In this document: piece by piece, positions 691-24,998 of the stretch
Layout of the letters: every line of letters starts with the position of its first letter
Numbering within the stretch: the stretch's first letter is position 1
From: a virus
Lineage: Duplodnaviria; Heunggongvirae; Uroviricota; Caudoviricetes
Virus record (IMG/VR): IMGVR_UViG_2778261591_000021
Direction: 5' to 3' (one strand)
DNA: 30,329 nucleotides
Notes under the pieces: model-generated
Database searches by the model: none
Seen by the model: the letters and a program-made list of their open reading frames with translations, nothing else
Told to the model about the DNA's origin: nothing
Made by a program: the position numbers and the translations under genes

Positions 691-2298
691 TCAGTCCTCA
701 ATTAATTGCAGACGCTCAGTCATAGTTCGTTTGCCAAATGTTCTCGTCAACTCAATTTCTGCTGCCGCTTCACGGATATGACGTTGCAGCACGTAATTCA
801 CATCACTTTCAAGATAATCCCTGATAAGACTATCAGAAACATTTAATGTTCTTTCTTTCGTACTACCTGCGGCTTTTACAGAAAATACGCTGACAAAATC
901 CTGTGGAACCTTAGCACCAGTAATTTTATTAATTACGATATCCGCTGCAATTTCAGCATCCTCAGGATCCAGTGTTTTATTTCCTCTCGACCACCAGTCA
1001 ACCAAAATACGTCGAAATTTATCGCGTTCACTGATTATTTTTCCAACTTTATATATGCGTGGGAAATAGCTTGCCTGGCCTAATGCTTTCAGTTCTTCAT
1101 CTGGCGGCAATAAACCAAGCTTTTGCATTTCAACTTTCACCCGATTTAATACAGTTCGCATCGCCTGCGCCGTTTCCTGAACAACAGGATTAGCATGCAC
1201 ATCACCGCTTCGCATAGCATTCCCAACCTGCTGACGAAATGAATCAAAACTCATGTCACCACCATCAGCTTTATACTTTGCGTATGCCTGTTTATTTCCG
1301 ACAACAACAGCAGCTTCTTCACGCTGCCATCCACGTGTACGGGTTTCTACAGCTACCGGTGTTTCAATCCCCCTTTCATTTCCTTTAAGGGTGAAATTAT
1401 TTTCGGCTAACTCCAGCGCTGTTTTTCGCACCGTCTTGGACGGAGACTCCATTAACCTTGTCAAAGGAGTAAGATAGCTCCCTGCTTTCCATGCAGCCTT
1501 TCCAACCCACCCACCGGAAACAGGGGTTAAATCATCCAGAGCCGCTGTATCAATTTTCATAGCACCAACACTACCACCATCGGAAAGCGAAGCGGCAGCC
1601 CTGTCAGTCGCTGATGTAATGCTCATATTATCAAGAGCATCAGCAACCTCACGTGTGGCTGCAGCCCGGACGGATGGCGAAAGCGCAACACCAGCACTGG
1701 CAAACACGCCGCTCATCATCGCACCCGCTGCAACGTGAGCGGCACTTTCACCCCATGAGCGTGTTATTTGCTGATTATTCAGTACAACCTCGCTTAATGC
1801 TGTACCGGCAGCACCAATCGCAATCTGTGAGCCAATACGCGCCAGTGCCCCTCCTTGAGCACCGGGAATAAACATTGACGCAACAGTAACCGGATCCATT
1901 CCCGCAGCAATACTGGCAAGGGTTCCAACTACGCCAGCATCAGACAATAAACGTCTGTCTTCATTTTCATCATCTATCTGCTGCTTAATCCACGCCGTTT
2001 CCTCTGGCGATCGGGAATCTGCAAATTTCGCCCCCCAGTATTCATAACCGTGCAACTCATTTTTATCAGCATATGGGTTATAACCCTCGACCGGTTCAAA
2101 CTGTCTGGCTGGGCGGAAAAAACCAGACAGAATATTGTTCTGTCGCATTGCAGCCCCCCATACGGAAGGCTCAGGTGGCAATGGCTCAGGATTAGCCCCT
2201 TCCGGAAGGGCAACATCAAACCCAGTTTGTTCCGGCAAAACGTTACCTGACGGGATCAGTCCGTTATTAAGATCTTCAGCTTGTGCATAAACTGGCAT
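691..2298 (-). CDS. virion protein, 535 aa (internal virion/ejection protein or tail-associated)
   Basis: Last gene of the translationally coupled structural operon; its start overlaps the stop of the upstream 905-aa gene. Ala/Gly-rich. Function is assigned from position only. Confidence 0.4.
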   Translation of the reverse strand: MPVYAQAEDLNNGLIPSGNVLPEQTGFDVALPEGANPEPLPPEPSVWGAAMRQNNILSGFFRPARQFEPVEGYNPYADKNELHGYEYWGAKFADSRSPEETAWIKQQIDDENEDRRLLSDAGVVGTLASIAAGMDPVTVASMFIPGAQGGALARIGSQIAIGAAGTALSEVVLNNQQITRSWGESAAHVAAGAMMSGVFASAGVALSPSVRAAATREVADALDNMSITSATDRAAASLSDGGSVGAMKIDTAALDDLTPVSGGWVGKAAWKAGSYLTPLTRLMESPSKTVRKTALELAENNFTLKGNERGIETPVAVETRTRGWQREEAAVVVGNKQAYAKYKADGGDMSFDSFRQQVGNAMRSGDVHANPVVQETAQAMRTVLNRVKVEMQKLGLLPPDEELKALGQASYFPRIYKVGKIISERDKFRRILVDWWSRGNKTLDPEDAEIAADIVINKITGAKVPQDFVSVFSVKAAGSTKERTLNVSDSLIRDYLESDVNYVLQRHIREAAAEIELTRTFGKRTMTERLQLIED

Positions 2299-5015
2299 TA
2301 TTTAGATCCCCACGAAAAGTAATCTTTAAATTTGTCCATACGTTCGTTATGCAGGCGCTGATACTGCTCATCCAGAGCGCGATGCTTGTCTTTGAAGTTT
2401 CGTATAGCCTGTCCACGCATAATTTCTTCCTGCTCGTACTGCTCCCGTTCCTGCTGCATTTTCTTATAGGGTTCCCAATCTTCTAGTGATGGTTCCCAAC
2501 GCATAGGACGCCCATGTTTGTTATAAAACGGCTGGACCCGATCGATGCCATTTTCATCCTTAGTTCTTACCATAATGGCGTAATCACCATTACGGGGTGT
2601 TAACACGTCAGGGGTTATGAATAATTCTCCATTAATACGACTCTCAGGGGTTTTTGTCTCAACTACAGGAGCATTACCTGACGTGATCCCAAGCAACGTC
2701 GGGCTGGTTGTTATAATCTCTTTGCGCTCACCGTACATCAGCCGTTCTTTTTCAGCTTTCCACTGCGCCGCCTGCCAGCCTGACGGCCCATATTGATAAA
2801 GCGCCTCCGGTGCATATTTCATAAACTGCGCTTCTCCGTTAACCTCGCTGATACTCCAGGTGCGGGCTATCTGCTGGTTGGTCATTTGCTTCGCTACGTC
2901 AGCGTTACCACCAGCAACGCGGTAGTTAATGTCATACAGCGTCTGATAGTCATTACGGAATCTAGCTGCTTCCGGCGTCTGGTCATCCGCAGACGGATCC
3001 CAACGGAACCACTGCGCCATATTGCTGACAGCAGAATTCATCGCCTTGCTGCGATCATTTTTGTACTCTTTTGAACTCTGCGTTGATGCCAATTGAGCTT
3101 TAAGAGCATCGGTCTGGTTGTACGTAAGGTTCTGCGCCTGCTCGATAGCCGCATCAGCAGACATGCCAGAATCAGTTAGTTGCTTAACAGTCAGATAAAA
3201 ACCCTGCATATCCTTCGGCATATTTCCAATAGATGCATTGTCTGTTTCATATAACCGACTAAACAGTTCCGCCGCATTTTTAACCACTTCCTGATTGCTG
3301 GATCGGGATACTGCTGAAAGCTGCGTGATGATCTGCGAAGGCATTATGCCAGTCTGAGCCACAAGCCGAACAACCCCATCATGAGTGGAGGCATCATTAA
3401 TACGAAAGTTCTGCGCCATTTCTGTGTAATCAGCAGCTTTCTGCATTGACTTGTTGCTTGGGTCTAATTTTTCACCTATTGTCAGCGCCTCATTGAATCT
3501 GCGTGAATCCCGTTGCGCCTGAATTGCTTCATTTGATCTCTGAAGCAATGCAGACAATTTTCCGTAAGCATCGAGTTTTAACGCATAGTGAGGATCGTTA
3601 ACCTCAGGCTTCACTTTCTGCATTTCTTCTTGCTGCTGAGAAGGAGGCAAATACTGAATTGCCTGGAATATTCTCGCGTTATCAATCGCTATATCCAGTT
3701 GATTGATTATTTTATCTGCGTTTTTTCCATACCCCCTGATGATGGTCTCCTGAGCCGGTATATAATCTGGAACCTCACCGTTATATAGCTGGGCCATGGT
3801 GTTATTAATAGCTGGCTCAAGCTGTTCTAATATTAACTTCCTTTGCTTTTCTATCTGACTATTAGCAAGGTTATCTATTTGATAAATAGTCAGCGGATCC
3901 ATTCCAGTTTTATTTTTTCTATATCGGGAAAGCCACCCTTGTGTTTCTGATGGAAGATTTCGGATAAATTCTTCTTCTGATATTTCACCTTTACGTGGAT
4001 CACCGACTTTGGCGATCAGTTTATCCACGTTACCCATCCCCCAGTTATATGCTGCTCCGGTCAATATTTCGGAACCGTACTTACCATACAGTTGATTTAC
4101 ATAGTCACTGGCGAGCATTTCATGCTGTTGTTCGTCCGTAGGGTTGTATTCAACGCCACGCTTGGCCGCCAGTTCTTTTCCTGTGCCCGGCATTAACTGG
4201 TATTTCCCCTGGGCTCTCTCTCCAGAAGATGTTATCGGTCCCTCAAGAAGACTACCATCAGGATTAAAATGTCGATCACCTGATTCAACAAGGCGTATGG
4301 CACGCATGTCCATGCCTCCAGAATCATTTTTCTGAAACAGACCATTTAGCCATCCTTCTGGATTGGCAGCGGCATAATTCTTCGCCCGCATTTCTGTGGC
4401 ACTGCGATCATCACTTTCTATTTCTTCCAGAATGCGTTCTTGTGACCATCCCCTGGCAGCTCCATATCTGGCAATGGCTACCATTCTGGAATTTCTGGCT
4501 AAAGTGGCAGTTTGCGGGTCATTCCAGGCATCCGCTTCATTTTGTATCCATAATTTTCTCGTTGCCTGATATTGCTCATCTTCATAGGCATTTGTCTGCC
4601 CTATCTCATGTCTGAGAACTCCAGTACTGAACTGAATTTTCTGTGTTCTGGCTTGTTGCAAAAACATATTTCTTGCAGCTTCATCAGTCAATGAAGCAGC
4701 TATTTCTTCCACATCCTGATCAAATCCAGATATGTACTCTTGCCCCTTACCAATCGCATTTTTGCCTTGTTGTGCATAAAAACCGGTTTGAGGGTTATAA
4801 AGACGTTCATTGCTGCGCTGATTAAGCTGAAGGATGGCATCCTGAGACAATGCAACATTCGCTTTCTGCCTGGCTTCACCATATGCCACCGCATACTGAT
4901 CTGCGACATTCGCCAGCACCTGACCTGCTTGAGGAACATCGAAGGTCTGAAAACCACCGGTTTGCACACCACGACTTTGCACCTGACGTCCGGATACTGT
5001 TGGTACGACTGGCAT
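2298..5015 (-). CDS. internal virion protein with lytic transglycosylase (SLT) domain, 905 aa
   Basis: Contains SLT-like motifs (ES...GKYQLMPGTGKE...AAYNWGMGNV). Start re-assigned to the ATG at 5015, which has a GGAGG Shine-Dalgarno 7 nt upstream and overlaps the upstream stop as TAATG; the track ORF extends to 5090. Confidence 0.7.
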   Translation of the reverse strand: MPVVPTVSGRQVQSRGVQTGGFQTFDVPQAGQVLANVADQYAVAYGEARQKANVALSQDAILQLNQRSNERLYNPQTGFYAQQGKNAIGKGQEYISGFDQDVEEIAASLTDEAARNMFLQQARTQKIQFSTGVLRHEIGQTNAYEDEQYQATRKLWIQNEADAWNDPQTATLARNSRMVAIARYGAARGWSQERILEEIESDDRSATEMRAKNYAAANPEGWLNGLFQKNDSGGMDMRAIRLVESGDRHFNPDGSLLEGPITSSGERAQGKYQLMPGTGKELAAKRGVEYNPTDEQQHEMLASDYVNQLYGKYGSEILTGAAYNWGMGNVDKLIAKVGDPRKGEISEEEFIRNLPSETQGWLSRYRKNKTGMDPLTIYQIDNLANSQIEKQRKLILEQLEPAINNTMAQLYNGEVPDYIPAQETIIRGYGKNADKIINQLDIAIDNARIFQAIQYLPPSQQQEEMQKVKPEVNDPHYALKLDAYGKLSALLQRSNEAIQAQRDSRRFNEALTIGEKLDPSNKSMQKAADYTEMAQNFRINDASTHDGVVRLVAQTGIMPSQIITQLSAVSRSSNQEVVKNAAELFSRLYETDNASIGNMPKDMQGFYLTVKQLTDSGMSADAAIEQAQNLTYNQTDALKAQLASTQSSKEYKNDRSKAMNSAVSNMAQWFRWDPSADDQTPEAARFRNDYQTLYDINYRVAGGNADVAKQMTNQQIARTWSISEVNGEAQFMKYAPEALYQYGPSGWQAAQWKAEKERLMYGERKEIITTSPTLLGITSGNAPVVETKTPESRINGELFITPDVLTPRNGDYAIMVRTKDENGIDRVQPFYNKHGRPMRWEPSLEDWEPYKKMQQEREQYEQEEIMRGQAIRNFKDKHRALDEQYQRLHNERMDKFKDYFSWGSK

Positions 5016-5563
5016 TATAATCCTCCGGGTAATCTGGTTCCTGCTGCTGCCCCGATTGGCGCAGGGGTGCTTTGAGTAAACGGACTCCACGTCCCACCAA
5101 ACATCTGGTATGCACCGTATGCTTTTAGTGGTGCCGTTAACAAAGTGCTGGTCATCGATGATTTAGCAGCCGACTGAGCAGCAGCCCCCTGTGCCTGAGC
5201 ATTCATTCCCTGAACCTGATACCCATATGCCTCACGCTGAGCATTATTCACTGTCGTTAACGCATCAAGAGCGCCGAACTGAGCATTATCCGCAAAAACG
5301 TCAAGAGCTGTTCCGCTACTTAATTCCGCACCGGTAGCCCCCATAGTGGCCGCCGCAGTGCCTGAGCGTTGACGCATTTCACGACGACGCTGATCCGCTT
5401 CAATATTCCCACGATTGATTGAATCCTGTGCCTGAGCTTCAGCAATTTCAGCATTCCGATCAGCTATGGCTGACTGGTATTTTGCCTGCTTGCTCTGGCT
5501 GTACATTGACGCGGCTGTGGATGCCACTGTGACGGCAACCAAAGCGATGGCTGGGTTACACAT
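5015..5563 (-). CDS. internal virion protein, 182 aa, hydrophobic N-terminus
   Basis: N-terminal hydrophobic segment (AIALVAVTVASTAA) followed by an Ala/Gln-rich region. Size and position match a T7 gp14-like core protein. Confidence 0.4.
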   Translation of the reverse strand: MCNPAIALVAVTVASTAASMYSQSKQAKYQSAIADRNAEIAEAQAQDSINRGNIEADQRRREMRQRSGTAAATMGATGAELSSGTALDVFADNAQFGALDALTTVNNAQREAYGYQVQGMNAQAQGAAAQSAAKSSMTSTLLTAPLKAYGAYQMFGGTWSPFTQSTPAPIGAAAGTRLPGGL

Positions 5564-6027: not shown

Positions 6028-8498
6028 CAGAATCCCCCAACAGTAAGGCGAGGAATAACGGCAAGAACAGACAGCGGCAACGGGTCAAGCTGACGGATTT
6101 TTACACGTCCGTTTTTGCCCCAGTTACTGTCCAGTTTCACTTCTACTTTTCCGGTAGCATCATCAACAGGATCATCGTAGAACTCGAATTCACGCTGTGG
6201 ATATTCGTACCATTTGCCGCCGGGCGTAGTCGCCCAGATGCCGCGACTGGCATTCACAACCAGAGTAACGGACGGGATCACCTGTTTTTTGTCCAGCAGC
6301 GTTTCCTGTCCGTTAATGTTGATATCCAGCGTTTCGAATTCAGCAGTTATTGGCAGGCCGATGTGCACTACAGCCCCCGGTGATTCCAGCGTGACGGCAC
6401 CTCCGGAAACCACTTTCTGTGGTTCCACGTTGGCATCAGAGAGAATATTTACGGTCTGGCCTTCAAGATGAGACAGGCCTCCAAATGTCCTGCGCGCCAT
6501 CTGCCAGTTCGTGGTGGACACATTCCTGAGGGATGGCGGGACGTTCCTGTTAGCACGAACCACTACTGCGGTATTACTGGTTACAGAAATAATGTCGCAA
6601 CGTAATTCTTTTGACACTTCATCGCCAGTATCAGGAACAGTTCCGGCATAAGGGAACTGTAGTTGCGCGCCGACATCACTACTGGTGAAGTACGCACCAC
6701 CAGAAACACTGATTGTATATTCCGCGCGATAATCCCATTCGCCAGAGCCACCAGTGATGGTCATCGTTCTGTCAGACGTATTTCTTCCATCATAGCTAAG
6801 GCCAGAATCAACAAAGAAAGCATCTTCATCGCTGGTAAATAAACGGCTGGACAGCCGCTCGATGTATCTCACTGTTTGCCCGTTAACGGTTCGGTTAACG
6901 ACGAAATACACCGCATCTTCATTGCCTTCGCTGATACTGCATGTGCTTTCATATTTTCCGGTACTGGATTGTGGTGCCCATGCAAAAACCTGCTGATCAC
7001 GCAAATAGGTCATCACCAGTAATTTACCGTCATCACGAATGCAGAAGGCGCTGGAGTAAGGGACAATAGAGAAGCACCAGTCAACAATGCTGTGCTTCTG
7101 AAAAAGATGATTGGCAAGGATGGTCAGGTCGTTCCCCTGATAGCCGTCAACATCGAATGAGTAGGCCAGATCACGGACAACACTGCCTTTCTCCTGGACG
7201 AACAGAGCAATATTCGCTACGGCAATTGGTGGGACGTTGCTTGAGCCATTTGATCCCTGAGAGCTGAATGCAAATGATGATGGGGTTAACACTTTGTTCT
7301 GGTCGCCGGTGATGACGTACTCACCTCCGGAAGTCAGCGCCACCAGAGAACCAACATCAATCAGGTGGCGGATCTCATTAACCTGACGCCCGGCATAGGT
7401 GTAGATAATTCTGTCGTCATCCTGCGTAGGATTGCTTTTGCCAAAATCCTTATAATCCCCGGTACGGCTGGCCCAGATAGTCTGAGGGAACGCAGTCGAT
7501 GCGGCGAAGTAAAGACGTTGTTGATAATAAACAACAGTGCCAGGATAACCATTAACACTGTTCCAGGCATATTTAGCCCATTTATAGCTGGCATTATCCT
7601 CGCCAACTACCTGCGAAGGGATATAGGAAATCACCTCGGCAGTTGCAGTAGTTCCATTTGCAGCAGTGATACGGGCAATGCCAAAACCACTGTGCAGATA
7701 TTCCCACTCAATGCCGGTATCATCATCACCGGATCCGCCCCAGCCATCCCATGATGTGCCTTCTGTATGCGAAGGGCGCAAAGTACCTGTTTTGCCTGCT
7801 GTAACGGCGCGATAGTAGTTACTGTCTGCACGGCGAATATCGCCAATCGACGTACTCTTACTGGTTTCCCATACCGGCACTGAATCAACTGCAGGCTGTT
7901 CCAGATAGAACAATTTGCCTACCTGCTCCGCGCCAAAAATAGAGGCGCTTGCCGTTAACGTAATTGTCCCGGTGCTGGCGCTGGCATAAACCGTCACTGA
8001 CTCGTCAATATTGATATCTTCAAATGGTCCGTTCTTCGTTACCACATCAACCAGTTGCCAGTTGTCATGCGCATAGCGACGCAACTCTTTCGGCGGGTAT
8101 GCCGGATGAACAAGCGTAAGCACGTCTGCGCTTTGCGTGAATTTAATTCGGAACAGATCGGCTTCAGTATATGGCGTGGCAATTTCATAAATAACATTGC
8201 TGCTGTTCAGCACCAACGCACCATCTTTGATAACGCGCATGTACTGGTGTCCGAACTCCAGAGCATAAGTCTGAACCGTCGAGAACTGGAACGGTATCAG
8301 GCGGCATTTCCGATTTGGGTATTTGGCGGCACCGACAAAACGCGTACCAGGTCGATTCTCAACGCCGCCATACTGCCGCACGATAAAGTTATCGCACTTG
8401 CGCAATGCTACCTGGTACTTCGCCATGTCGATACGCCCGTACAACGACGGTCCAATCTCACCACCGGCAAAGCTGGGCTGGATCCAACTGATAGCCAT
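6027..8498 (-). CDS. large tail protein, 823 aa (podovirus tail tube/hub-like)
   Basis: Beta-rich, Gly/Ser/Thr-rich sequence. Position after a 202-aa protein and before the core proteins mirrors T7 gp11/gp12 order and sizes. Confidence 0.45.
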   Translation of the reverse strand: MAISWIQPSFAGGEIGPSLYGRIDMAKYQVALRKCDNFIVRQYGGVENRPGTRFVGAAKYPNRKCRLIPFQFSTVQTYALEFGHQYMRVIKDGALVLNSSNVIYEIATPYTEADLFRIKFTQSADVLTLVHPAYPPKELRRYAHDNWQLVDVVTKNGPFEDINIDESVTVYASASTGTITLTASASIFGAEQVGKLFYLEQPAVDSVPVWETSKSTSIGDIRRADSNYYRAVTAGKTGTLRPSHTEGTSWDGWGGSGDDDTGIEWEYLHSGFGIARITAANGTTATAEVISYIPSQVVGEDNASYKWAKYAWNSVNGYPGTVVYYQQRLYFAASTAFPQTIWASRTGDYKDFGKSNPTQDDDRIIYTYAGRQVNEIRHLIDVGSLVALTSGGEYVITGDQNKVLTPSSFAFSSQGSNGSSNVPPIAVANIALFVQEKGSVVRDLAYSFDVDGYQGNDLTILANHLFQKHSIVDWCFSIVPYSSAFCIRDDGKLLVMTYLRDQQVFAWAPQSSTGKYESTCSISEGNEDAVYFVVNRTVNGQTVRYIERLSSRLFTSDEDAFFVDSGLSYDGRNTSDRTMTITGGSGEWDYRAEYTISVSGGAYFTSSDVGAQLQFPYAGTVPDTGDEVSKELRCDIISVTSNTAVVVRANRNVPPSLRNVSTTNWQMARRTFGGLSHLEGQTVNILSDANVEPQKVVSGGAVTLESPGAVVHIGLPITAEFETLDININGQETLLDKKQVIPSVTLVVNASRGIWATTPGGKWYEYPQREFEFYDDPVDDATGKVEVKLDSNWGKNGRVKIRQLDPLPLSVLAVIPRLTVGGF

Positions 8499-12014: not shown

Positions 12015-12307
12015 TCCTGTTCACTGGCCTCTTTGGCCATCTTCAAATACTGTTCAGGGCAATGCGCCATAACGCGCTGAAACAGTTCCAGCGCCAGATT
12101 GCGTTGCCCCTCATTAAATGCCATTGCCATAGCGTCCATCGGTGAGATAGCGGAAAACACACGGCCTTTCTCCAGCACCGACCAGACAACGCGACGCCCC
12201 TGTTCACTGCTCATGACAAAGCGAATGTCATCAATTTCACGCTGCGCCATGTCACGTTGCTTACGGGCGTTTTCTTCTTTCAGTTGATCGTCTTCGTAAT
12301 CTGTCAT
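12011..12307 (-). CDS. hypothetical protein, 98 aa
   Basis: Coupled ORF between portal and scaffold genes. Confidence 0.4.
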   Translation of the reverse strand: MTDYEDDQLKEENARKQRDMAQREIDDIRFVMSSEQGRRVVWSVLEKGRVFSAISPMDAMAMAFNEGQRNLALELFQRVMAHCPEQYLKMAKEASEQE

Positions 12308-13983
12308 TGTGATTGCCCACCCTGACCACTAACTGCATTCGCCATAGCTGACAAAACACTCGGATCCGAAGTTTTAGCTTCGCTTAGTGTCTTGGCACCC
12401 TGTGCCGCCGCCATCCCCATCGCCATCATTTGTTGCTGCTGTTGCTGCTGTGCCCGTTGCTGGCGAGCCTGCTCAACCTGTTCCTGCGGAACAATGACGG
12501 TTGGAGACACTCCGGACATATCAGCGAATGCATCGATCGCCTGATCAACGTTGAGTTTGTCGAGAGCTTCTGGTTTCGCTTGCGCAAGTTGACCAATGAA
12601 GTTAACCGTGGACGCCAGACTGGACAGGCCGATAGACTTCTGCGCCTGAGCCATGACGGAAATGTATTCGACCTTCAGGGGCATACCTTCCATCGCGTCA
12701 GGCGGTGGCGGCAGCATGTTTTTACGCACCATCATCGAGAAAGCGCGGTCAATGAGAGGGTTAAGACATTCGTCGTTCAGACGCTCCAGAACCGGCCCCA
12801 ACATCAGAAGCTTTTCTTCTTTCATTTCGATCACTGCTTCAACAGGCATCGAGCGGGTATTGATGTTCTGCAACATCATGAACAGATCGACAAAGTAGGC
12901 GCTGTTAATGATTTGGCGGGTGTCCTGAATGTCTGCTACCAGATCTGCTGTACTGGGGTTAACCAGATAAGCAGGCCTGAAACCATCCTGACCAGTAATC
13001 TGATCGATATACGTGATGTCGCCAGGAAGAAGAGAGGCGCGCTGATTCTTGAGGGAAGTCGGAGCAACCATCGGCGGATTGGTGGCTTTATCAATCAACT
13101 GCGACTTGCGCTTCTGGAGAAGCTGCAATGCCTTAACAGGTCCAAGCGCCAGCATACCCGGGCATGATGATCCATAAACATCTTCGCCGTTAACTTCCCA
13201 GCGCGGAGCCATAATTGGAAACTCATCGAATCCGGACTCACGCAACAACTTGTCGTTATCGCCACCAACCTCGTAATAAACCGATTTGAATGGCTTGTTC
13301 TTGCTATCCAGCTTCGATGTATCGCGGTCAATGTTCGGGTAAACCGAATGCATCACTTCAATCCACTTCTCGTAGGTGCCGCTTTCCCACATGCTTTTTA
13401 CGGATTCGCTGACGTTATTTAGTCCGAACTCCTGAACAAGCTGACGAACAGTCATAGAGAACTTGCGAAAACAGGTGTCCACACTGCCACGAGGTGAGTT
13501 AGCCAGGTAGTAACTTCCTATCGGGAATGGCATTGTACGAATGATGTCCTCGTCATCCTCCAGCACCGCCATTGCGCCAGTGCTGTATGTGCCGAGGCTT
13601 CCGTATAACTGCGGCAGCGACTGATAGAGATTCGACTTATTGAACATATCGTTCATGCGGTTCTGAACTGCCTCAAGCCACAACTTAACAGGGCCATAAT
13701 CCATCATTTCAGGATCTGGCGTAGCCAGGCGAAACCACGGACGCGCGGGGCTTGTGATGCCTGACATCATGCCGCTGGCGAGAGTGCGCGCCGCCATAGT
13801 CCCGGTCGAATCAATAATGCGTGTATTGCGCCGATCGTTACGGTTGGCCTCAGAAGTCAGAAAGCGGGAACCACGCGGGTTGATGTAATCACTCAACTCG
13901 CGCCAGTGCGGCTCGAACGACTGACGCTCGCTTTCAAGTTGTGCGAACTGTTTGTTCAATCGCTCTTTAGTTGTTTCCGCCAT
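12304..13983 (-). CDS. portal (head-tail connector) protein, 559 aa
   Basis: Size and position between terminase and scaffold; podovirus-type portal. Confidence 0.7.
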   Translation of the reverse strand: MAETTKERLNKQFAQLESERQSFEPHWRELSDYINPRGSRFLTSEANRNDRRNTRIIDSTGTMAARTLASGMMSGITSPARPWFRLATPDPEMMDYGPVKLWLEAVQNRMNDMFNKSNLYQSLPQLYGSLGTYSTGAMAVLEDDEDIIRTMPFPIGSYYLANSPRGSVDTCFRKFSMTVRQLVQEFGLNNVSESVKSMWESGTYEKWIEVMHSVYPNIDRDTSKLDSKNKPFKSVYYEVGGDNDKLLRESGFDEFPIMAPRWEVNGEDVYGSSCPGMLALGPVKALQLLQKRKSQLIDKATNPPMVAPTSLKNQRASLLPGDITYIDQITGQDGFRPAYLVNPSTADLVADIQDTRQIINSAYFVDLFMMLQNINTRSMPVEAVIEMKEEKLLMLGPVLERLNDECLNPLIDRAFSMMVRKNMLPPPPDAMEGMPLKVEYISVMAQAQKSIGLSSLASTVNFIGQLAQAKPEALDKLNVDQAIDAFADMSGVSPTVIVPQEQVEQARQQRAQQQQQQQMMAMGMAAAQGAKTLSEAKTSDPSVLSAMANAVSGQGGQSQ

Positions 13984-13997
13984 TTCAATGACTCCGG

Positions 13998-14204
13998 TTA
14001 CTGACCAAGCAGCGTTTTACCGCTGGTATTAGCGGTTGATGTGTCGCCCTGAGAACCGGTAAGCAGCGTAGAACTACGACCAGCAGCAGCGCGACGGCGA
14101 CGAGTTTCTTCGTCGCGGGCATCAACAACGGCGGCATCCTGCTCCTGTGGTGCTGCCTGAACTTCTGGTGTTGCAGGCACTGATGGTGAGCTACCCATGC
14201 ACAT
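13998..14204 (-). CDS. small hypothetical protein, 68 aa
   Basis: ATG with GGAG 10 nt upstream; first gene of the structural operon after the accessory island. Low-complexity sequence. Confidence 0.3.
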   Translation of the reverse strand: MCMGSSPSVPATPEVQAAPQEQDAAVVDARDEETRRRRAAAGRSSTLLTGSQGDTSTANTSGKTLLGQ

Positions 14205-14272
14205 ATCAATGACTCCGTACGCAATTAAATTATTACCAATTTAACCACATATGATTTATTTATCGTAGATAG

Positions 14273-14309
14273 TTGACATTTAACGCACAAATTATTACCT
14301 TTCAGGTAA
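14273..14309 (+). promoter_or_regulatory. promoter-like TTGACA followed by a TTACC-N5-GGTAA operator-like palindrome
   Basis: TTGACA at 14273-14278; TTACCTTTCAGGTAA at 14295-14309. Same layout as the early promoter at 25090-25132. Points toward the structured region and tRNA. Confidence 0.45.
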
Positions 14310-14329
14310 CCAAAGAGTTCATTCCGGTT

Positions 14330-14631
14330 ACTAACCTGACTGGCTTGTCGTTAAATTGAACAGGTGGAGTGAGCTTTTATTTTGAGCAGTACGGCGTATG
14401 GCACATGCGCCGATAGCGGTCTGGATACGTTTAAGGGGCACCCTCCCTTGCTCGGGCAAACGAACCAGGTAGCCGGAATGTGCAAGTCGAGCGGTTTTAT
14501 TCCGCGCACGGGGATTCACCATCCCGGCGATTCGGTGTGACGCCTCGGAAGAGACGAGGGTACAACGATGAGAGCATTTATGGAGCCGCGACAAAGTGTG
14601 GCGCCTTAACAGGCTAAGTGCTCTCAGCGTT
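14330..14631 (+). other. GC-rich, hairpin-dense non-coding region upstream of the tRNA (candidate structured RNA or tRNA leader)
   Basis: No convincing ORF on either strand. Multiple perfect local hairpins, for example CCTCG-gaagaga-CGAGG and CGGAAT...ATTCCG. Lies between a promoter and the tRNA. Confidence 0.25.
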
Positions 14632-14708
14632 GTGGCATTAGCTCAGTTGGACAGAGCAACCGCCTTCTAAGCGGTTGGTCGCAGGTTCGAATCCTGCATG
14701 CCACGCCA
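14632..14708 (+). tRNA. tRNA-Arg (anticodon TCT, reads AGA)
   Basis: Full cloverleaf: 7-bp acceptor stem GTGGCAT/ATGCCAC, D-arm GCTC/GAGC, anticodon stem ACCGC/GCGGT with loop CTTCTAA, T-arm GCAGG-TTCGAAT-CCTGC, discriminator G and encoded CCA. Resembles but is not identical to an enterobacterial argU-type tRNA as recalled from memory. Confidence 0.85.
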
Positions 14709-14751
14709 GAATCACGCCTAAGGACCGTGATGCCAGAAGTTCCAGGGGCTT

Positions 14752-14795
14752 GGCGGTGATGGTTTCCCTTGAAGGACTATCACCGCCCTTTTTAC
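14752..14795 (+). terminator. rho-independent terminator downstream of the tRNA
   Basis: GGCGGTGAT...ATCACCGCC stem followed by CTTTTTA. Confidence 0.55.
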
Positions 14796-14870
14796 AGCAG
14801 GACGCCATTGCGATGACTTCATGCTGTAAACCAGTACAGCCACGGAAGGCATAACTCATTGCTTCCAGTT

Positions 14871-14896
14871 CGCCCGGTTCGCCGGGCATTTTTTTG
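14871..14896 (+). terminator. rho-independent terminator
   Basis: GCCCGG-ttcg-CCGGGC stem followed by ATTTTTTT. Confidence 0.65.
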
Positions 14897-14900
14897 ATTG

Positions 14901-14929
14901 ATGACCGCAAATTACCTTAAAGGTATAAT
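14901..14929 (+). promoter_or_regulatory. promoter-like element with a perfect -10 TATAAT (14924-14929) overlapped by an operator-like palindrome
   Basis: Palindrome TTACCTTAAAGGTAT at 14912-14926; a possible -35 ATGACC lies 17 bp upstream of the -10. Sits immediately before the moron ORF. Confidence 0.4.
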
Positions 14930-14930
14930 C

Positions 14931-15749
14931 ATGAAAAACTTCAAGGTAATTAGCATGTTTGAATCGTTCAAAGAGCTGTTTTTATCTACTGCCAATACTG
15001 CCGTGAATCGAGCCAAAAACCCTGTGCTTGGTGCTTTTGTTATGTCCTGGTGCGCCTTCAACTGGAAATCAATTCTTTATCTATTTTTTAGCAAATCAAA
15101 CATAATAGATAAAATTTCATATATCTCAGATAACAGCACATGGAAAACTGTTATGTTTTATCCATGCTTATCTGTAATTGCTATCTGCTGCCTATTACCA
15201 TGGGTAAACAATATCATTAACGTATGGCAAGCAAAGCCTCTTGATAATAATGACTCAATCGAAAATCACCTGAAGGCAAGAAAAATCCAGCGTGAAACAA
15301 GACTGCAGAGGTTATTGGCTAAAAAAGATGTTACATACGACAAAGTTAAGACTGGCGCGGAAAAAGACATCCAAGAGATGAAAGAAGAGATTATTCGATC
15401 AAAGAATAGTATGGGGGAATTGACTGCCGAGTTGAAAGCTAAAGATGACGAATTGAGATCCGCCAGTGCACAGTTAGCAGCTCTAAATCATTCATTAAAA
15501 GAGATATCGGAAACTCTTGGAAGAATGAATGAGGCATATAAGACCCTCCAAAATGATTTCGACGAATACAAACTCAAATACCCTGAAAAATCTCAAATAA
15601 AAAGCCTTGCACTTGGCAACGGCCAAACAATTAGCAACGTTTTGGAGCAACACAACTTATCCGGATTAAAATCTGGTAAGCCAAACGTTTTTAATAACTT
15701 TGGTGTTCTATCTGGATTATCAGGTTTCGAGGATAAAAATAAAGACTAA
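14931..15749 (+). CDS. AT-rich accessory (moron) protein, 272 aa: two predicted TM helices plus a long coiled-coil domain; function unknown
   Basis: Opposite strand to all flanking structural genes and visibly AT-rich relative to them. ATG at 14931 has AAAGG upstream; the track ORF starts at TTG 14898. Hydrophobic segments are VLGAFVMSWCAFNWKSILYLFF and VMFYPCLSVIAICCLLPWV; heptad-like charged region from about residue 100 to 220. Confidence 0.6.
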   Translation: MKNFKVISMFESFKELFLSTANTAVNRAKNPVLGAFVMSWCAFNWKSILYLFFSKSNIIDKISYISDNSTWKTVMFYPCLSVIAICCLLPWVNNIINVWQAKPLDNNDSIENHLKARKIQRETRLQRLLAKKDVTYDKVKTGAEKDIQEMKEEIIRSKNSMGELTAELKAKDDELRSASAQLAALNHSLKEISETLGRMNEAYKTLQNDFDEYKLKYPEKSQIKSLALGNGQTISNVLEQHNLSGLKSGKPNVFNNFGVLSGLSGFEDKNKD

Positions 15750-17221
15750 GCATATGGATCGTACTCGGTAAGCGCCTTGCCTTGCTGGTTCTGCTGCCCG
15801 GGAAGTCGCAGGCGCTTTGACACCGGGAAAGCAAACGTCAGCAGTAGCGCATCGCCTTTACCAGGCGAACGCCCAAGTCGTTCTTTGATATCTTCCTTCG
15901 GTTCGATAACGATTTTACCGTCCACGCGAACTTTGTACTCTGCCGCCGACAGATCGTCCGCTGTTTCCTGGTCATCCAGCATCCCGCCCAACCTCAGCCA
16001 TGTCTTGCATGAGTTGAACATCTCCCCGCGCTTGTTAAGCATCTGCGGGTCAGTGGACGCACCGCCGAACGGAACAAGTTGCCATGTACGCCCCCAGCCA
16101 TCACCGATTGACTTCAAACCGGTTCCGTAACCGAAGTCGATGAACACCGCGTCAGCCTGATACTGGTCTTCAAAGTCAGCGATACGCTTCGCCATAATCA
16201 GATCGTCGGTAGTCTTGTTGCCAGTCCATAGCACCTTACTATGCAACCCCTGCCGCAGGTATATCACCGCGTCATCAACGCCTGAATATGCCGGGTCAAC
16301 ACCGATTATCACCGGAGCATGTGCCACCTGCGCAGCGGTTACCACCCGTTTCATTGCCTCATCAGTAAGACCGGTAGGGATAAACTGCAATTCAGATGCA
16401 TCAGGGAATATGCCGCGCACACGGATTTTAACGAAGTCGCTGTCTTCCCCGTAGTCATCAACCCATTTCTGCAACTGCTGTTTGTTAGTACCTTCCACCG
16501 TCCGGCTGTCAATCTGCGCAGTTTTCCAGCGGTGTTTGTATTTGCGGAAACATTCGCGAAAACGCCCGGTATTACGTGTAGGGTTTCCGAACGCCACCCA
16601 GATAATCTCAGTGTCTTCGTCCGTAAGCGCACCCTCAGCAACTTCCCACACCAGATCCGCAATGTTCGACGCTTCATCGAATACCACGATGATGCGTTTG
16701 CGCTCGTTGTGTAGTCCGGCGAATGCCTCAGTGTTGTGCTCAGACCAGGGGATTGCGTCAGCTCGCCACCGCTTGTCGTGCCCAGGATCATTGCTGTACA
16801 TCGCAGTAGCGGTACAGGTAAACCAGTCTTTCGTGATAGCAAGGTTCGACCACTTGATAATTTCCGGCCAGGTCTTCGTTCGTAGCTGGTTGTCGGTGTT
16901 GGCGGTCACCACGACCTTACAATCCTCGCAAGTGGACATGCCCCAGTTGATCAGCATTGAGATGAATGCGGATTTACCAATACCATGACCAGAAGCGCGT
17001 GCCAGCATAAGCGGCTGATAGCGCGTCTCTGGATTCTGCAGGTGATCACGTATCTCTCGGAACGCATCAGCCTGCCACTGACGTGGGCCGGTAGCATGTG
17101 CCAGTTCAGTCCCCTCTTCCCCCCACGGGAACGCATATAGGGCATAGCCAAGCGGATCGTGAGTGAACCCTGCAATATCCTCGATCAACTGCTCTTCAGG
17201 AGATAACGCTGTATCTGTCAC
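15746..17221 (-). CDS. terminase large subunit, 491 aa
   Basis: Walker A-like GHGIGKS, ATPase and nuclease acidic blocks (VVFDEAS, GVDPAYSG), and position after the small subunit with overlapping stop/start. Confidence 0.9.
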   Translation of the reverse strand: MTDTALSPEEQLIEDIAGFTHDPLGYALYAFPWGEEGTELAHATGPRQWQADAFREIRDHLQNPETRYQPLMLARASGHGIGKSAFISMLINWGMSTCEDCKVVVTANTDNQLRTKTWPEIIKWSNLAITKDWFTCTATAMYSNDPGHDKRWRADAIPWSEHNTEAFAGLHNERKRIIVVFDEASNIADLVWEVAEGALTDEDTEIIWVAFGNPTRNTGRFRECFRKYKHRWKTAQIDSRTVEGTNKQQLQKWVDDYGEDSDFVKIRVRGIFPDASELQFIPTGLTDEAMKRVVTAAQVAHAPVIIGVDPAYSGVDDAVIYLRQGLHSKVLWTGNKTTDDLIMAKRIADFEDQYQADAVFIDFGYGTGLKSIGDGWGRTWQLVPFGGASTDPQMLNKRGEMFNSCKTWLRLGGMLDDQETADDLSAAEYKVRVDGKIVIEPKEDIKERLGRSPGKGDALLLTFAFPVSKRLRLPGQQNQQGKALTEYDPYA

Positions 17222-17814
17222 TGATTACCATCCTGACGTTCTTTGAGTCGCTTCCTGGCTGCTGCTATGCGATCAGCAATTGTCACATTCACATTAACAT
17301 CCAGACGTTCTTTGAACGCGTTGACATCAACATGCTTACCAATCAGCTCAAGGTTCTTCACCTTGTCAGGCCATTTAATTTTTTTGAGGATTGTCTCTAT
17401 CGAATCCTCGTTCATGTTCATGATGGTCGATGACAGATCAAAGCCACTAAGCGTAGTGCGCCAGATTTTCGGCCACTCACGGATTGGTTTAAGGCTCCCA
17501 TCGTCGTTGAGGATGTCGATCACGTCCATCTGGTCGATCTCCACCAGGCGCATGAGAACGTAATCAGCACTGACGCGCATTCGTTTGTTGCGCTCCTCCA
17601 TCAACTCGGCAATCCGTTTTTGAATGCGTTCATCGCGCATCATGACACTGGCTTTAACTGCCGCTGTATTTGGGGAGAATCCTGCGTTAATCGCTGCCTG
17701 AGTCTGGTTTTCAGGCGTTTTGATGTATGACTGGCAATAAGCCTCCTGCATTGCTGTTAGTGGCTTAAATTGCGTTGATTTGCGTTTATAGGTTTTAGGT
17801 TCAGCAGGCATCAT
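17218..17814 (-). CDS. terminase small subunit
   Basis: Terminase small-subunit-like sequence with a basic helical C-terminus. Start re-assigned to the ATG at 17814, because the track's TTG-initiated extension to 17892 contains a terminator hairpin. Confidence 0.75.
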   Translation of the reverse strand: MMPAEPKTYKRKSTQFKPLTAMQEAYCQSYIKTPENQTQAAINAGFSPNTAAVKASVMMRDERIQKRIAELMEERNKRMRVSADYVLMRLVEIDQMDVIDILNDDGSLKPIREWPKIWRTTLSGFDLSSTIMNMNEDSIETILKKIKWPDKVKNLELIGKHVDVNAFKERLDVNVNVTIADRIAAARKRLKERQDGNQ

Positions 17815-17821
17815 AACCACC

Positions 17822-17853
17822 GTGGTAATAGTTACCGTTGTGGTAATAGTACC
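17822..17853. repeat. two direct repeats GTGGTAATAGT(T)ACC just upstream of the terminase small-subunit start
   Basis: Copies at 17822-17836 and 17840-17853. Each contains everted GGTAA/TTACC half-sites related to the operator palindrome. Confidence 0.5.
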
Positions 17854-17856
17854 ATG

Positions 17857-17883
17857 CAAAATAAAGCCGCCATAGTTGGCGGC
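17857..17883 (-). terminator. rho-independent terminator immediately upstream of the packaging/late operon
   Basis: Minus strand: GCCGCC-aactat-GGCGGC stem followed by TTTATTTT. Confidence 0.55.
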
Positions 17884-17924
17884 AGTATTCAAAACCCATC
17901 AAATTTATCATGCATAATCTACTC

Positions 17925-21006: not shown

Positions 21007-21597
21007 CATCAGTGATTCATAAAACTTTTGCCACTTATGCCGACCGAAATTAGCCTTCGAGTTACAGCTCGAACAAAGGCAAATAAGGTTCTCCTGACGA
21101 CAGTCTTGCTTGTCGTAATTGATGTGATGAGTTGTTAGCCTTTTGTCTGTTCCATCACAACCTGGGTTCTGACAAGTAAAACCATCTCGCTCAATAACCC
21201 TCTTGCTCGTTTCTCGGAAATCCCACGGATACGGCAATCTCGATAATCCACCAGACCAGTTTGGATTTCCTTCCCCCTTCATCAGAGAAGAACGCATTAT
21301 GTTGGAACACTGTTTCGAGCAGCATTTATGACGCTTCTCATGACTCAAGAAAACGGAGAACGAAGATCCGCATACGCAGCATATTTTTAATACTCGCTTT
21401 AGTTCCCGATTTACCGTCTTGCCTCGCTGTGAAATTCCTACACACTGAAGTGAGCAGAACCTTGAAGATGAGTTGGCTCGCTTAACCTGATATTGCCTGC
21501 CACATACGGAGCAAACCTTTTCGATTTTCCCACCCTTCCAATTCGGGTTTTTATCACCGGATACAATCAATCCCGCAGCATTGGGCTTCTCGCTCAT
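20989..21597 (-). CDS. HNH endonuclease with N-terminal zinc-ribbon repeats, 202 aa
   Basis: Repeated NPNWKGG/NPNWSGG motifs and CxxC pairs; C-terminal HNH core (CQNPGC...THHINYDK...NLICLCSSCNSK). Confidence 0.7.
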   Translation of the reverse strand: MSEKPNAAGLIVSGDKNPNWKGGKIEKVCSVCGRQYQVKRANSSSRFCSLQCVGISQRGKTVNRELKRVLKICCVCGSSFSVFLSHEKRHKCCSKQCSNIMRSSLMKGEGNPNWSGGLSRLPYPWDFRETSKRVIERDGFTCQNPGCDGTDKRLTTHHINYDKQDCRQENLICLCSSCNSKANFGRHKWQKFYESLMKNRSA

Positions 21598-21947
21598 AGT
21601 TCCTCAACCTCCCATCCACCACCGAGCTTTTTAGGTTTTGGATAAGCAACCTGAAAGACAAACGGATAGCTGTCTGCCGCAACCTTCATCTTGACTCTCG
21701 CATCGTCAGTAAAGACTGACTTACTTCCCTTAACGTCCACCATCACCAACTGCCCGTCAGCCAACATCACGGCAAAATCTACAGTCAGGAAGCAGTTGTC
21801 AGCTAACCGCAGCTTGAGACCATCGAATCGATACCAGGCGATTTCCCCTGCACGTTTACGCTGCTCAAGGTGCTGGCAATACGCAGATTCTGTTTTGTTC
21901 ATCTGACCTGTTTTGAGTCGACCAAGAGCCTGTATCTGTTTTCTCAT
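21594..21947 (-). CDS. DUF1064-like (PD-(D/E)xK nuclease-fold) phage protein, 117 aa
   Basis: Pattern E...Y...L...DF.V...DG...DVKG typical of a small phage nuclease-fold family. AGGGG RBS. First gene after an operator-flanked promoter. Confidence 0.45.
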   Translation of the reverse strand: MRKQIQALGRLKTGQMNKTESAYCQHLEQRKRAGEIAWYRFDGLKLRLADNCFLTVDFAVMLADGQLVMVDVKGSKSVFTDDARVKMKVAADSYPFVFQVAYPKPKKLGGGWEVEEL

Positions 21948-23677: not shown

Positions 23678-23878
23678 TCAGCTTGAGTGTTGTGGGGAGG
23701 AATTAATCATGATCTGCTTAATCTCTGCCCTGATGCGACGGTTTGATTCCATGGTGCACTCAACACAGTGTCCGTTGTAAACCCAGCGTTCACTGTCATG
23801 TCCGTGCTTACATGGTTTTCCGGTGTAATAGCGTTTAAGTCCGCGCTTTGCGGCATCAATACGTGTAATGATTTCCAT
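23678..23878 (-). CDS. small Zn-finger-like protein (CKHGH...HCVEC), about 66 aa, at the cII position
   Basis: Internal ATG at 23878 preferred over the hydrophobic N-terminal extension in the track. Cys/His cluster. Located between the cro-like and O-like genes. Confidence 0.35.
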   Translation of the reverse strand: MEIITRIDAAKRGLKRYYTGKPCKHGHDSERWVYNGHCVECTMESNRRIRAEIKQIMINSSPQHSS

Positions 23879-23958
23879 GGTAAGCCCTGTTATTAGTATT
23901 GGGATTACGGTTATTTTGTGCTGACACAAAAAAAAGATCAACCATATTTGGTTTTTTA

Positions 23959-24028: not shown

Positions 24029-24259
24029 TCATGAGTAGAAGAAGTATGCCAATTCTGCTTTTGAGCGCAGCCATTGTCTTGTTTTACAGGCTTTAAAAAG
24101 CCCATTCATCAATACCTTACCTGGCATTTTGCGCTTACCTGTTAAGTGAGTCTGGATATAGTGACTCGTCGTTCCGGCTTCCTGTGCGAAGGCTTCACGC
24201 TCATCCGGAGTAAGTGCAAGCCAGTGCTTTTTGAAATCGAAATGTCCGTTATCGCTCAT
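24029..24259 (-). CDS. Cro-like HTH DNA-binding protein, 76 aa
   Basis: Divergent from the repressor-like gene across an operator-containing intergenic region; HTH-like segment EREAFAQEAGTTSHYIQTHLTGKR. Confidence 0.5.
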   Translation of the reverse strand: MSDNGHFDFKKHWLALTPDEREAFAQEAGTTSHYIQTHLTGKRKMPGKVLMNGLFKACKTRQWLRSKAELAYFFYS

Positions 24260-24413: not shown

Positions 24414-24998
24414 ATGAAAAGTATCCAGGACGTCCGCAGGCAAAATCTCAACGACTTGATCGACCGTGAATTCAATGGTGTTCAGACGCGGATGGCAGAA
24501 AAACTTGGAACTCAGGCAAATCTGGTAAACCGCTGGGCTCTTGGCAAGAAGGTTATCGGCGACCAGGTTGCGCGAAAAATTGAAGCTGCCGCCAATAAAC
24601 CCCGTAACTGGCTTGATATCGATCGCTCGCTTTCTCAGGAAGGTTTTCAGCCTGTCGGCCCAAGCGACATTGGTCAGCTGGCGGCTCACAACCTGGAACG
24701 CTGGATGAGCGAAAGCCGCGACCTTTCAACGCAGGGAAAACTTCACCGCGCATCCGGCGTCGCCCAGGTGACAATCAGTCGCCTGTTAAACAATGAGGTC
24801 AGCGTTTCCATTTCCACCCTGGAGAATGTTGCATCCGCATTCGGGCGTCACGGATATGAACTACTGATTCACCCGCACGACCCTGCGACTATCAACTATG
24901 ACCGCTCACGCTACGCATTGTTACCCGAAACCGAGAAAGCAAAGATCGAAAGTTACATTGAATTTGTCATCAACCAGAACGAAAAAAGCAAACAATAA
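24414..24998 (+). CDS. repressor-like protein with two tandem XRE-type HTH domains and no LexA/S24 peptidase domain, 194 aa
   Basis: HTH 1: TRMAEKLGTQANLVNRWALGKK. HTH 2: KLHRASGVAQVTISRLLNNEVSVSISTLENVASAFG. Occupies the cI position and is followed by its own terminator. Confidence 0.6.
   Translation: MKSIQDVRRQNLNDLIDREFNGVQTRMAEKLGTQANLVNRWALGKKVIGDQVARKIEAAANKPRNWLDIDRSLSQEGFQPVGPSDIGQLAAHNLERWMSESRDLSTQGKLHRASGVAQVTISRLLNNEVSVSISTLENVASAFGRHGYELLIHPHDPATINYDRSRYALLPETEKAKIESYIEFVINQNEKSKQ

Follow-up and report, generated by a model that had tools for sequence, protein, structure and literature searches.

A plus-strand island between the portal and terminase genes

We analysed a plus-strand island at positions 14225-15749 of a 30,329-nt phage sequence (IMG/VR record IMGVR_UViG_2778261591_000021; this whole stretch of DNA is called the window below), and in particular a structured RNA that the island encodes. 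The window belongs to a phiV10-like temperate podovirus of the genus Uetakevirus, and where it can be aligned, the region 13900-16000 shares 98% identity with phiV10, with O157 typing phages 9 and 10, with TL-2011b and with others. Minus-strand morphogenesis genes flank the island on both sides: the portal gene (12304-13983; Pfam Head-tail_con, E 9e-188) with a small conserved gene beside it (13998-14204) on the one, and the genes for the large terminase TerL (15746-17221) and the small terminase TerS (17218-17892) on the other. Read along the plus strand, the island holds a promoter with an operator, the structured RNA, a tRNA-Arg(UCU), two intrinsic terminators, a second promoter with an operator and an AT-rich gene, which we call the cargo gene.

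A first-pass annotation of the sequence had described the island as running against the portal and terminase genes, an orientation that gene calls and Pfam matches bear out. It had listed a TTGACA promoter with an operator-like palindrome, a GC-rich structured non-coding stretch, the tRNA, two strong terminators, a second promoter-like element and an AT-rich gene for a membrane/coiled-coil protein whose stop abuts the terminase gene, and each of these is present at or near the place assigned to it. Its reading of the whole as a horizontally acquired moron is weighed below, once the parts have been described.

A conserved structured RNA

The GC-rich stretch at 14391-14631, about 240 nt on the plus strand, is folded as the first-pass annotation supposed (z -2.5 for the single-sequence fold), and it is more than that: a real and well-supported structured RNA family, conserved and with strong covariation. 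Its core spans 14391-14561 and matches our model R1 with 140.7 bits (E 1.8e-44). The core opens with helix P1 (14392-14412) and helix P2 (14420-14424 with 14464-14468), runs through an invariant 19-mer, GGTAGCCGGAATGTGCAAG (14468-14486), to helix P4 (14511-14515 with 14521-14525), whose loop pairs with a downstream GGUG in an H-type pseudoknot (14517-14520 with 14534-14537), and closes with helix P5 (14543-14559). A further hairpin, P3, is variable and was identified by eye only. Across the family the core is 150-175 nt long and its junctions are invariant. A 3' domain, helix P6 (14563-14632), comes in addition to this length; it is a long hairpin, CAAC-GAU-GAGAGCA...UGCUCUC-AGC-GUUG, with a variable tip, and its closing pair uses G1 of the tRNA. 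The Uetakevirus version alone also has a 5' leader hairpin, P0 (14313-14378; minimum-free-energy fold), whose stem changes compensatorily in Tyrion and PAT1 (AAAGCGCGC...GCGCGCTTT). All of these elements lie on the plus strand.

Covariation was assessed at 27 pairs in 74 distinct model-aligned sequences. The proposed structure (P1, P2, P4, P5 and the pseudoknot) is paired in 95.0% of cells, compared with 29-48% when the partners are slid by one to three columns. Compensatory changes occur at 15 of the 27 pairs, in 170 cells, and none of 500 shuffles reached the observed values; an independent MAFFT alignment gave similar numbers. P6 was found in 88 of 120 unique loci, and its stem exists in many versions whose changes compensate one another, among them GAGAGCA/UGCUCUC, AAGCGCA/UGCGCUU and GAUGGCU/AGUCAUC. 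The plus strand is taken as the RNA strand because the G-U pairs would read C-A on the opposite one. RNAalifold also proposed a long-range pairing, GCACAU/AUGUGC, which competes with an extension of P1 and whose bases are all invariant. A coding role for 14331-14617 was considered and rejected, since the open reading frames (ORFs) there are short with non-ATG starts and conservation tracks the helices, not a frame. In SPN1S (locus L009) and Stx2a_WGPS2 (locus L011) the tip of P6 carries a common insertion of about 60 nt with the T-arm-like strings GGTTCAATTCC and CCGTTCGATTCGG.

Distribution of the RNA and its annotation

Queried with 14300-14631, blastn matched 14391-14631 at about 82% identity in unrelated phages, where the matching DNA is mostly unannotated. 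The lambdoid carriers include cdtI, mEp460, 2H10, Ayreon and both Stx2c and Stx2a phages; the RNA is also present in P7 and other P1-like phages, in Klebsiella, Salmonella and Enterobacter phages, and in a phage deposited as infecting Stenotrophomonas. In IMG/VR at least 120 loci contain the 19-mer GGTAGCCGGAATGTGCAAG, with 111 unique cores that form 42 clusters at 80% identity. The same 19-mer occurs in 24 contigs of species-representative genomes, 22 of them from named Enterobacterales and the other two short, metagenome-assembled and labelled Bacillota and Lachnospiraceae. Counted by itself, the RNA is found in 1064 of 5426 complete E. coli genomes, where it occupies 1241 places; plasmids carry 276 of these. 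The median is one place per genome and the maximum three, and 80 loci each have a single copy.

Among the matches listed from complete E. coli genomes, none has an annotation under the RNA. A search of 14225-14631 against Rfam 15 returned only the tRNA above the gathering threshold, the best other models having E above 1 and lying far below it; at E up to 10, no GOLLD, ROOL, EAR or known riboswitch model matched the RNA. Searching the literature by topic and by the invariant sequence strings, we found no description of it. Several phage records instead annotate a hypothetical protein across the RNA or tRNA in the opposite orientation (PhiV10p04, L001:3239-3490; mEp460 gp37, L004:2443-2811; BUCT709, L007:2323-2613); these gene calls are probably spurious and a consequence of the RNA being unannotated. 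The RNA is an undescribed family, well supported, that genome annotation has missed.

A tRNA or tRNA-shaped module abuts the RNA

The tRNA-Arg with anticodon UCU (14632-14708, plus strand, CCA encoded) was called by ARAGORN and scores 73.3 bits against Rfam RF00005, whose gathering score is 29. In 33 of 133 loci tRNA-Arg(UCU) starts at the last base of P6, and in more than 25 other unique loci a tRNA-shaped module replaces it at this position. The module is closed by a helix (GUGGUGA/YCACCAC) and contains a GCGC hairpin that resembles a D arm, an insert whose length varies from 80 to 190 nt and the hairpin CCGG-AGAUCAGCA-CCGG; the mEp460 copy (L004:2741-2870) contains CCGGAGAUCAGCACCGG and then YCACCAC-AAC. 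Neither ARAGORN nor the Rfam tRNA model calls the mEp460-type module, and it was assigned as a pseudo-tRNA by helix geometry. At locus L054 (minus strand of the locus, about 8201-8331) the module combines a canonical T arm, GCCGGUUCGAUUCCGGC, with an acceptor-like helix and a long insertion; its weak match to the tmRNA model (15.7 bits, E 0.029) is the only one that Rfam gives for the pseudo-tRNAs. Across the pseudo-tRNAs the acceptor-like and T-arm-like helices are retained while the central insert varies.

Supplying AGA decoding is a plausible role for the tRNA-Arg(UCU). AGA codons occur at 7.0 per 1000 in the genes of the window, with 14 in the ORF at 2298-5090 (930 aa) and none in the portal or TerL genes; in the cargo gene they account for four of eight arginines. 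Since the tRNA shape persists where the anticodon arm has been lost, we suggest a second role, in which the tRNA or pseudo-tRNA is probably an RNase P cleavage site that would define the 3' end of the RNA.

Operator-bearing promoters and a predicted repressor

The TTGACA promoter, designated promoter P1 (14273-14309, plus strand), has its -35 hexamer at 14273-14278 and, after a 17-nt spacer, the -10 element TACCTT at 14296-14301. The perfect palindrome TTACCTTTCAGGTAA (14295-14309, plus strand) overlaps it. In five Uetakeviruses from four host genera (Escherichia, Klebsiella, Enterobacter and Salmonella) neither the -35 hexamer nor the palindrome varies, and the -10 element is TACCTT or TACCCT only. 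The second promoter, P2 (ATGACC-17-TATAAT; 14901-14929, plus strand), carries the candidate operator TTACCTTAAAGGTAT (14912-14926) within its spacer, and the promoter region of the homologous cargo cassette at L054 likewise contains TACC-N5-GGTA.

With up to two mismatches allowed, TTACC-N5-GGTAA occurs 11 times in the window where 0.5 copies are expected, a count that none of 100 shuffles reached. The copies start at 14295, 14912, 17832, 21951, 22013, 23959, 24135, 24296, 24344, 25056 and 25118. The five that start at 24135, 24296, 24344, 25056 and 25118 flank a repressor-like gene (24414-24998, plus strand), which encodes a 194-aa helix-turn-helix (HTH) protein predicted to be the repressor from its matches to PHROG transcriptional regulator and repressor families; a divergent cro-like ORF, also identified by a PHROG match, lies beside it at 24029-24259. 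This cluster of repressor, cro-like gene and operators has the usual OR/OL arrangement. The palindrome is probably the operator of the phage repressor, and the eleven copies presumably mark all repressor-controlled promoters of this phage. Among them are sites upstream of the genes at 21594-21947 and 23678-23941. On account of the operator placement, we infer that both island promoters would be off in the lysogen and would fire early after induction or infection.

Genomic position in lambdoid phages, P7 and Uetakevirus

The RNA occurs in three independent contexts, lambdoid phages, P7 and Uetakevirus, each of which is tied to a repressor by annotation or by operator placement. In about 70 of the 133 loci an S24-type cI gene lies immediately upstream on the same strand; the genes downstream at these loci are mainly on that strand too, and those further upstream (cro-like HTH and CII-family genes) are mainly on the opposite one. 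Two lambdoid loci, mEp460 and L017, were read base by base. The order in mEp460 is the cI stop, the cI terminator, two TTGC...GCAA operators with a promoter, and the RNA; L017 has another immunity type, with GGTAAC-type operators, and the same layout. At both loci the RNA lies 47-60 nt past the predicted transcription start, in mEp460 about 60 nt, and a location after pL is also found in Stx2a_WGPS2 and BUCT709. This position, right after the operator-bearing leftward early promoter, is that of nutL and putL. No N gene is annotated in mEp460, and no N-like product was found among the three commonest first-gene clusters and several other common downstream clusters, in a search in which lambda N, as control, matched phrog_271.

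In P7 the RNA stands between tRNA-Ile(CAU) and ban, within a C1-controlled operon. The mEp460-type lambdoids (L004:206-407, minus strand; also L006 and L011) additionally have, in their antirepressor region, Rfam matches to C4 antisense RNA, to the a1/b1 targets of C4 and to isrK; this set is a P1-like secondary immunity system.

Terminators and promoterless genes downstream

Both strong terminators of the island are hairpins with a T-run on the plus strand: T1 (14752-14795, with the hairpin at 14752-14787) has a 14-bp stem followed by CUUUUU, and T2 (14872-14896, with the hairpin at 14872-14887) is GCCCGG-UUCG-CCGGGC followed by U7. T1-like stems (GGCGGTG... or GGTGGCAG...ACCGCC with a T-run) were recognised by eye in Klebsiella phage ST512 and in L017, where the hairpin is followed by U7. 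Between the RNA and the first gene of mEp460 there are a 39-nt hairpin (-19 kcal/mol, then UCUUUUU) and a 77-nt hairpin (-37 kcal/mol, then UUUUG). A strict terminator scan across loci gave same-strand peaks at +250 to +500 (0.19 per locus) and +750 to +1000 (0.15 per locus); the remaining bins were mostly at or below 0.04 per locus, except for a peak of 0.24 at -250 to 0 and a single bin of 0.05.

In phiV10 and ST512 the ribosome-binding site and ATG of the cargo lie about 12-17 nt past the U-run of T2. Because this leaves no room for a promoter after T2, expression of the cargo in these phages would need read-through of both terminators. Late transcription from terminase to portal can pass T1 and T2, since both lack a U-run on the opposite strand. 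The lambdoid and Uetakevirus loci that we inspected have the RNA first, then a tRNA or pseudo-tRNA, then strong terminators and after these promoterless genes; in the window and at L054 the cargo has a promoter of its own.

An exchangeable cargo slot

The cargo gene of the window (14955-15749, plus strand) encodes a 264-aa protein of phrog_4780 (E 8e-137), a family of unknown function. Its GC content is 0.37, compared with 0.52-0.54 in the portal and TerL genes. ATG 14955 is most likely the start because homologues begin MLESLKE... and because the -10 element of P2 ends two bases before ATG 14931; starts at 14898 and 14931 are disfavoured, most homologues starting as ATG 14955 does. The protein is predicted to be all-helical, with a hydrophobic N-terminal domain, a clear transmembrane segment at about residues 63-90, a long helix at 100-208 and a disordered tail, and its AlphaFold model is poor (pLDDT 68, pTM 0.24). 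We found at least 200 homologues at E ≤ 0.001, and those with an organism name are from Enterobacteriaceae. Pfam, PADLOC and PHROGs gave no informative match; the PADLOC defence models returned weak coiled-coil matches only (E 3e-4 or worse, at most 18 bits). The stop of the gene overlaps that of TerL. At these convergent ends (15746-15749) the bidirectional terminator that intervenes in phiV10 is missing.

The homologues in RNA-bearing loci with readable flanks are all in the same Uetakevirus slot, and the full island with this cargo is found in 37 of the 5426 complete E. coli genomes. Uetakevirus relatives share the island from the promoter through the second terminator and diverge after it. 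The slot holds an Sf6 gp66-like gene in phiV10 and the typing phages (123 aa, 372-nt coding sequence; Pfam Phage_gp49_66), a DUF2829 gene in Klebsiella phage ST512-KPC3phi13.3, three small genes in Tyrion, and others in SPN1S and PAT1. In phiv142-3 (L003:3510-3536) T2 is followed by just an 8-codon ORF, MKYEFDGF, and then a bidirectional terminator, which looks like an emptied cargo slot. Between two cargo genes of Tyrion (L008:2708-2772) Rfam identifies an int-alpA RNA (44 bits, above the gathering score). The AT-rich gene is a separate, exchangeable cassette that in this phage has its own operator-bearing promoter.

Candidate functions of the RNA

The HK022 put RNA renders RNA polymerase terminator-resistant without any phage protein. 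We propose, tentatively and at close to even odds, that the RNA described here is likewise a cis-acting processive antiterminator, put-like but not homologous to put, because the succession of operator-controlled promoter, complex RNA, terminators and promoterless genes recurs in unrelated phages and matches that of HK022. In this reading the island is an early transcription unit, probably repressor-controlled, that combines a conserved module with a swappable slot. The nascent RNA would fold and, like HK022 put, remain with the polymerase that had transcribed it; so modified, this polymerase would pass the terminators directly downstream. Only transcripts begun at the repressor-controlled early promoter would then reach the downstream genes.

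Several results weigh against this proposal. Model R1 finds nothing at HK022 putL or at the HK639 putL-like RNA, with filters on or off, and blastn to the put RNAs gives 7-mers only. The strings common to the base of helix P1 and put stem I (ACGGCG...AUGCGUCG) are short and a weak lead only. There is no second, putR-like copy: the complete mEp460 genome has one match, as does each of the 80 loci. In a relaxed terminator scan, which we discarded, density was similar after the RNA and in control regions. The cargo has its own promoter in the window and at L054, making read-through unnecessary there, and a polymerase that read through in the Uetakevirus slot would transcribe TerL in the antisense direction. 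The phage phiv142-3 keeps the RNA with almost nothing downstream of it, and in P7 no terminator was found between the RNA and ban. Finally, release of the RNA by means of a tRNA-like handle would suit a product that acts in trans no less well.

A wider form of the antitermination proposal, which we consider possible at somewhat below even odds, is that the RNA is a new protein-independent modifier of RNA polymerase. It would be part of a portable cassette of antiterminator, tRNA and terminator that crosses lambdoid, Uetakevirus and P1-like phages, and it would replace N in a large lambdoid group. In a bolder version still, the RNA would sense a signal and gate the early lytic programme.

The strongest rival, unlikely in our estimate but to be taken seriously, is a stand-alone, stable, trans-acting RNA, made early in the lytic cycle and released by RNase P, for which T1 and T2 would merely end the unit; it would bind a factor of the host or of a rival phage, for takeover or anti-defence. 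There is precedent in the C4 RNA of P1/P7 and the CI RNA of P4, whose ends are defined by RNase P. A product of this kind fits the tRNA or tRNA-shaped module found right beside P6 in many loci, including those in which it has seemingly lost tRNA function, and the occurrence of RNA, tRNA (or its likeness) and T1 as a unit in unrelated phages. It also fits phiv142-3, which keeps the module without cargo, and the window, where the cargo has a promoter of its own. It sits poorly with mEp460 and L017, where the module lies between the sole operator-controlled early-left promoter and the early-left genes, so that a terminated unit would silence the operon. The cargo of phiV10 and ST512, with no promoter after T2, also speaks against it, and no target or complementary sequence was identified.

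The first-pass annotation had read the whole island as an acquired moron, expressed from the prophage and serving exclusion, defence or host modification. This is improbable for the whole, though part of it stands. The horizontal, moron-like character holds for the slot of the AT-rich gene (14897-15749): the own promoter, atypical composition and variable presence among relatives that mark a moron are found for the cargo gene only, which varies between close relatives and encodes a predicted membrane/coiled-coil protein of unknown function. It does not hold for the promoter, RNA, tRNA and terminators, which are no recent acquisition: they are conserved across the genus, in Uetakeviruses of E. 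coli, Klebsiella, Enterobacter and Salmonella, and shared there as far as T2, the cargo beyond differing from phage to phage. Expression in the lysogen is also unlikely, because repressor-type palindromes at both promoters, including the one in the spacer of P2, predict silence in the prophage; the island resembles a repressed early lytic unit. No terminator follows the cargo gene, and the PADLOC matches amount to coiled-coil noise. Of the parts of the island, the RNA, not the protein, is the likeliest to be new.

We regard as quite improbable a conditional regulator, riboswitch-like or protein-dependent, in which a ligand, a tRNA or the state of the host would set termination against read-through at T1 and T2. 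The RNA does have aptamer-like complexity, with a pseudoknot and long invariant single-stranded junctions that include the 19-nt block, and the layout of promoter, RNA, terminators and genes would suit such control. However, 77-190 nt of tRNA or pseudo-tRNA separate the RNA from the terminators, which excludes an overlapping expression platform, the downstream genes share no metabolic theme and no known riboswitch family matches. Selfish or decaying DNA without function at the RNA level, such as a miniature transposable element or a tRNA-gene remnant, would account for the occurrence in unrelated phages and plasmids but has a negligible probability, given that compensatory changes keep five helices and the pseudoknot, that the G-U pairs are strand-specific, that copy number is one per locus, with at most three places per E. 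coli genome, and that position and orientation are fixed relative to early promoters.

Comparison with known systems

Classical morons such as lambda bor and lom resemble the cargo gene in being AT-rich and variable and in having their own promoter; they differ in that the cargo promoter carries a phage operator, which predicts silence in the lysogen, and in that no terminator follows the gene. On the sequence evidence, the island now reads as an early lytic unit with a cargo slot and not as a lysogenic moron. The C4 and CI immunity RNAs are likewise small phage RNAs, but they are antisense regulators of 70-90 nt, unrelated in sequence and structure. GOLLD and ROOL are complex structured RNAs beside phage tRNA genes, as is the RNA described here, which differs from them in lacking an Rfam match, in its much smaller size and in its fixed position near an early promoter. 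The EAR RNA of the Bacillus eps operon is structured, contains a pseudoknot and promotes read-through of terminators from inside the operon. The P7 copy might act within its operon in a similar way, although there is no match to the Rfam EAR model, and host range and sequence differ.

Among lambdoid phages the N protein of lambda, together with nutL, occupies the same genomic position, and we propose the same logical role for the RNA, that of marking transcripts from the early promoter as terminator-resistant. It departs from the lambda system in that no N-like protein was found (boxA and boxB were not searched for) and in that the proposed mechanism is RNA-only. If the RNA is an antiterminator, it would explain how the early-left operon is expressed in many lambdoid phages that lack N.

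The closest known parallel is put, which suppresses termination in cis through the beta-prime zinc-binding domain of RNA polymerase. The HK022 putL and the annotated putL-like RNA of HK639 lie, like this RNA, just after the repressor-controlled pL of lambdoid phages without N; both kinds of RNA precede terminators and have no dedicated protein partner identified, and in some members the base of P1 matches the base of put stem I (A-CGGCG...AUG-CGUCG). The differences are considerable. put spans about 70 nt (annotated as 126 nt in HK639) and folds into two stem-loops, whereas this RNA, two to three times larger, has 170-240 nt, at least six helices and a pseudoknot. HK022 also has putR, while this RNA is single, with no copy on the PR side. 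Unlike put, it has a tRNA or pseudo-tRNA attached and extends to podoviruses (Uetakevirus) and P1-like phage-plasmids. Genomic layout supports, by analogy, the suggestion that it may suppress termination as put does. Among phages, processive antitermination by RNA alone has been studied well in essentially one case, HK022 put. The RNA described here occurs in about 20% of complete E. coli genomes, and its carriers include Shiga-toxin phages and P1-like phage-plasmids. Should it prove to be an antiterminator, this RNA-only strategy would be common, and the RNA would provide a second natural scaffold for the reprogramming of polymerase by RNA.

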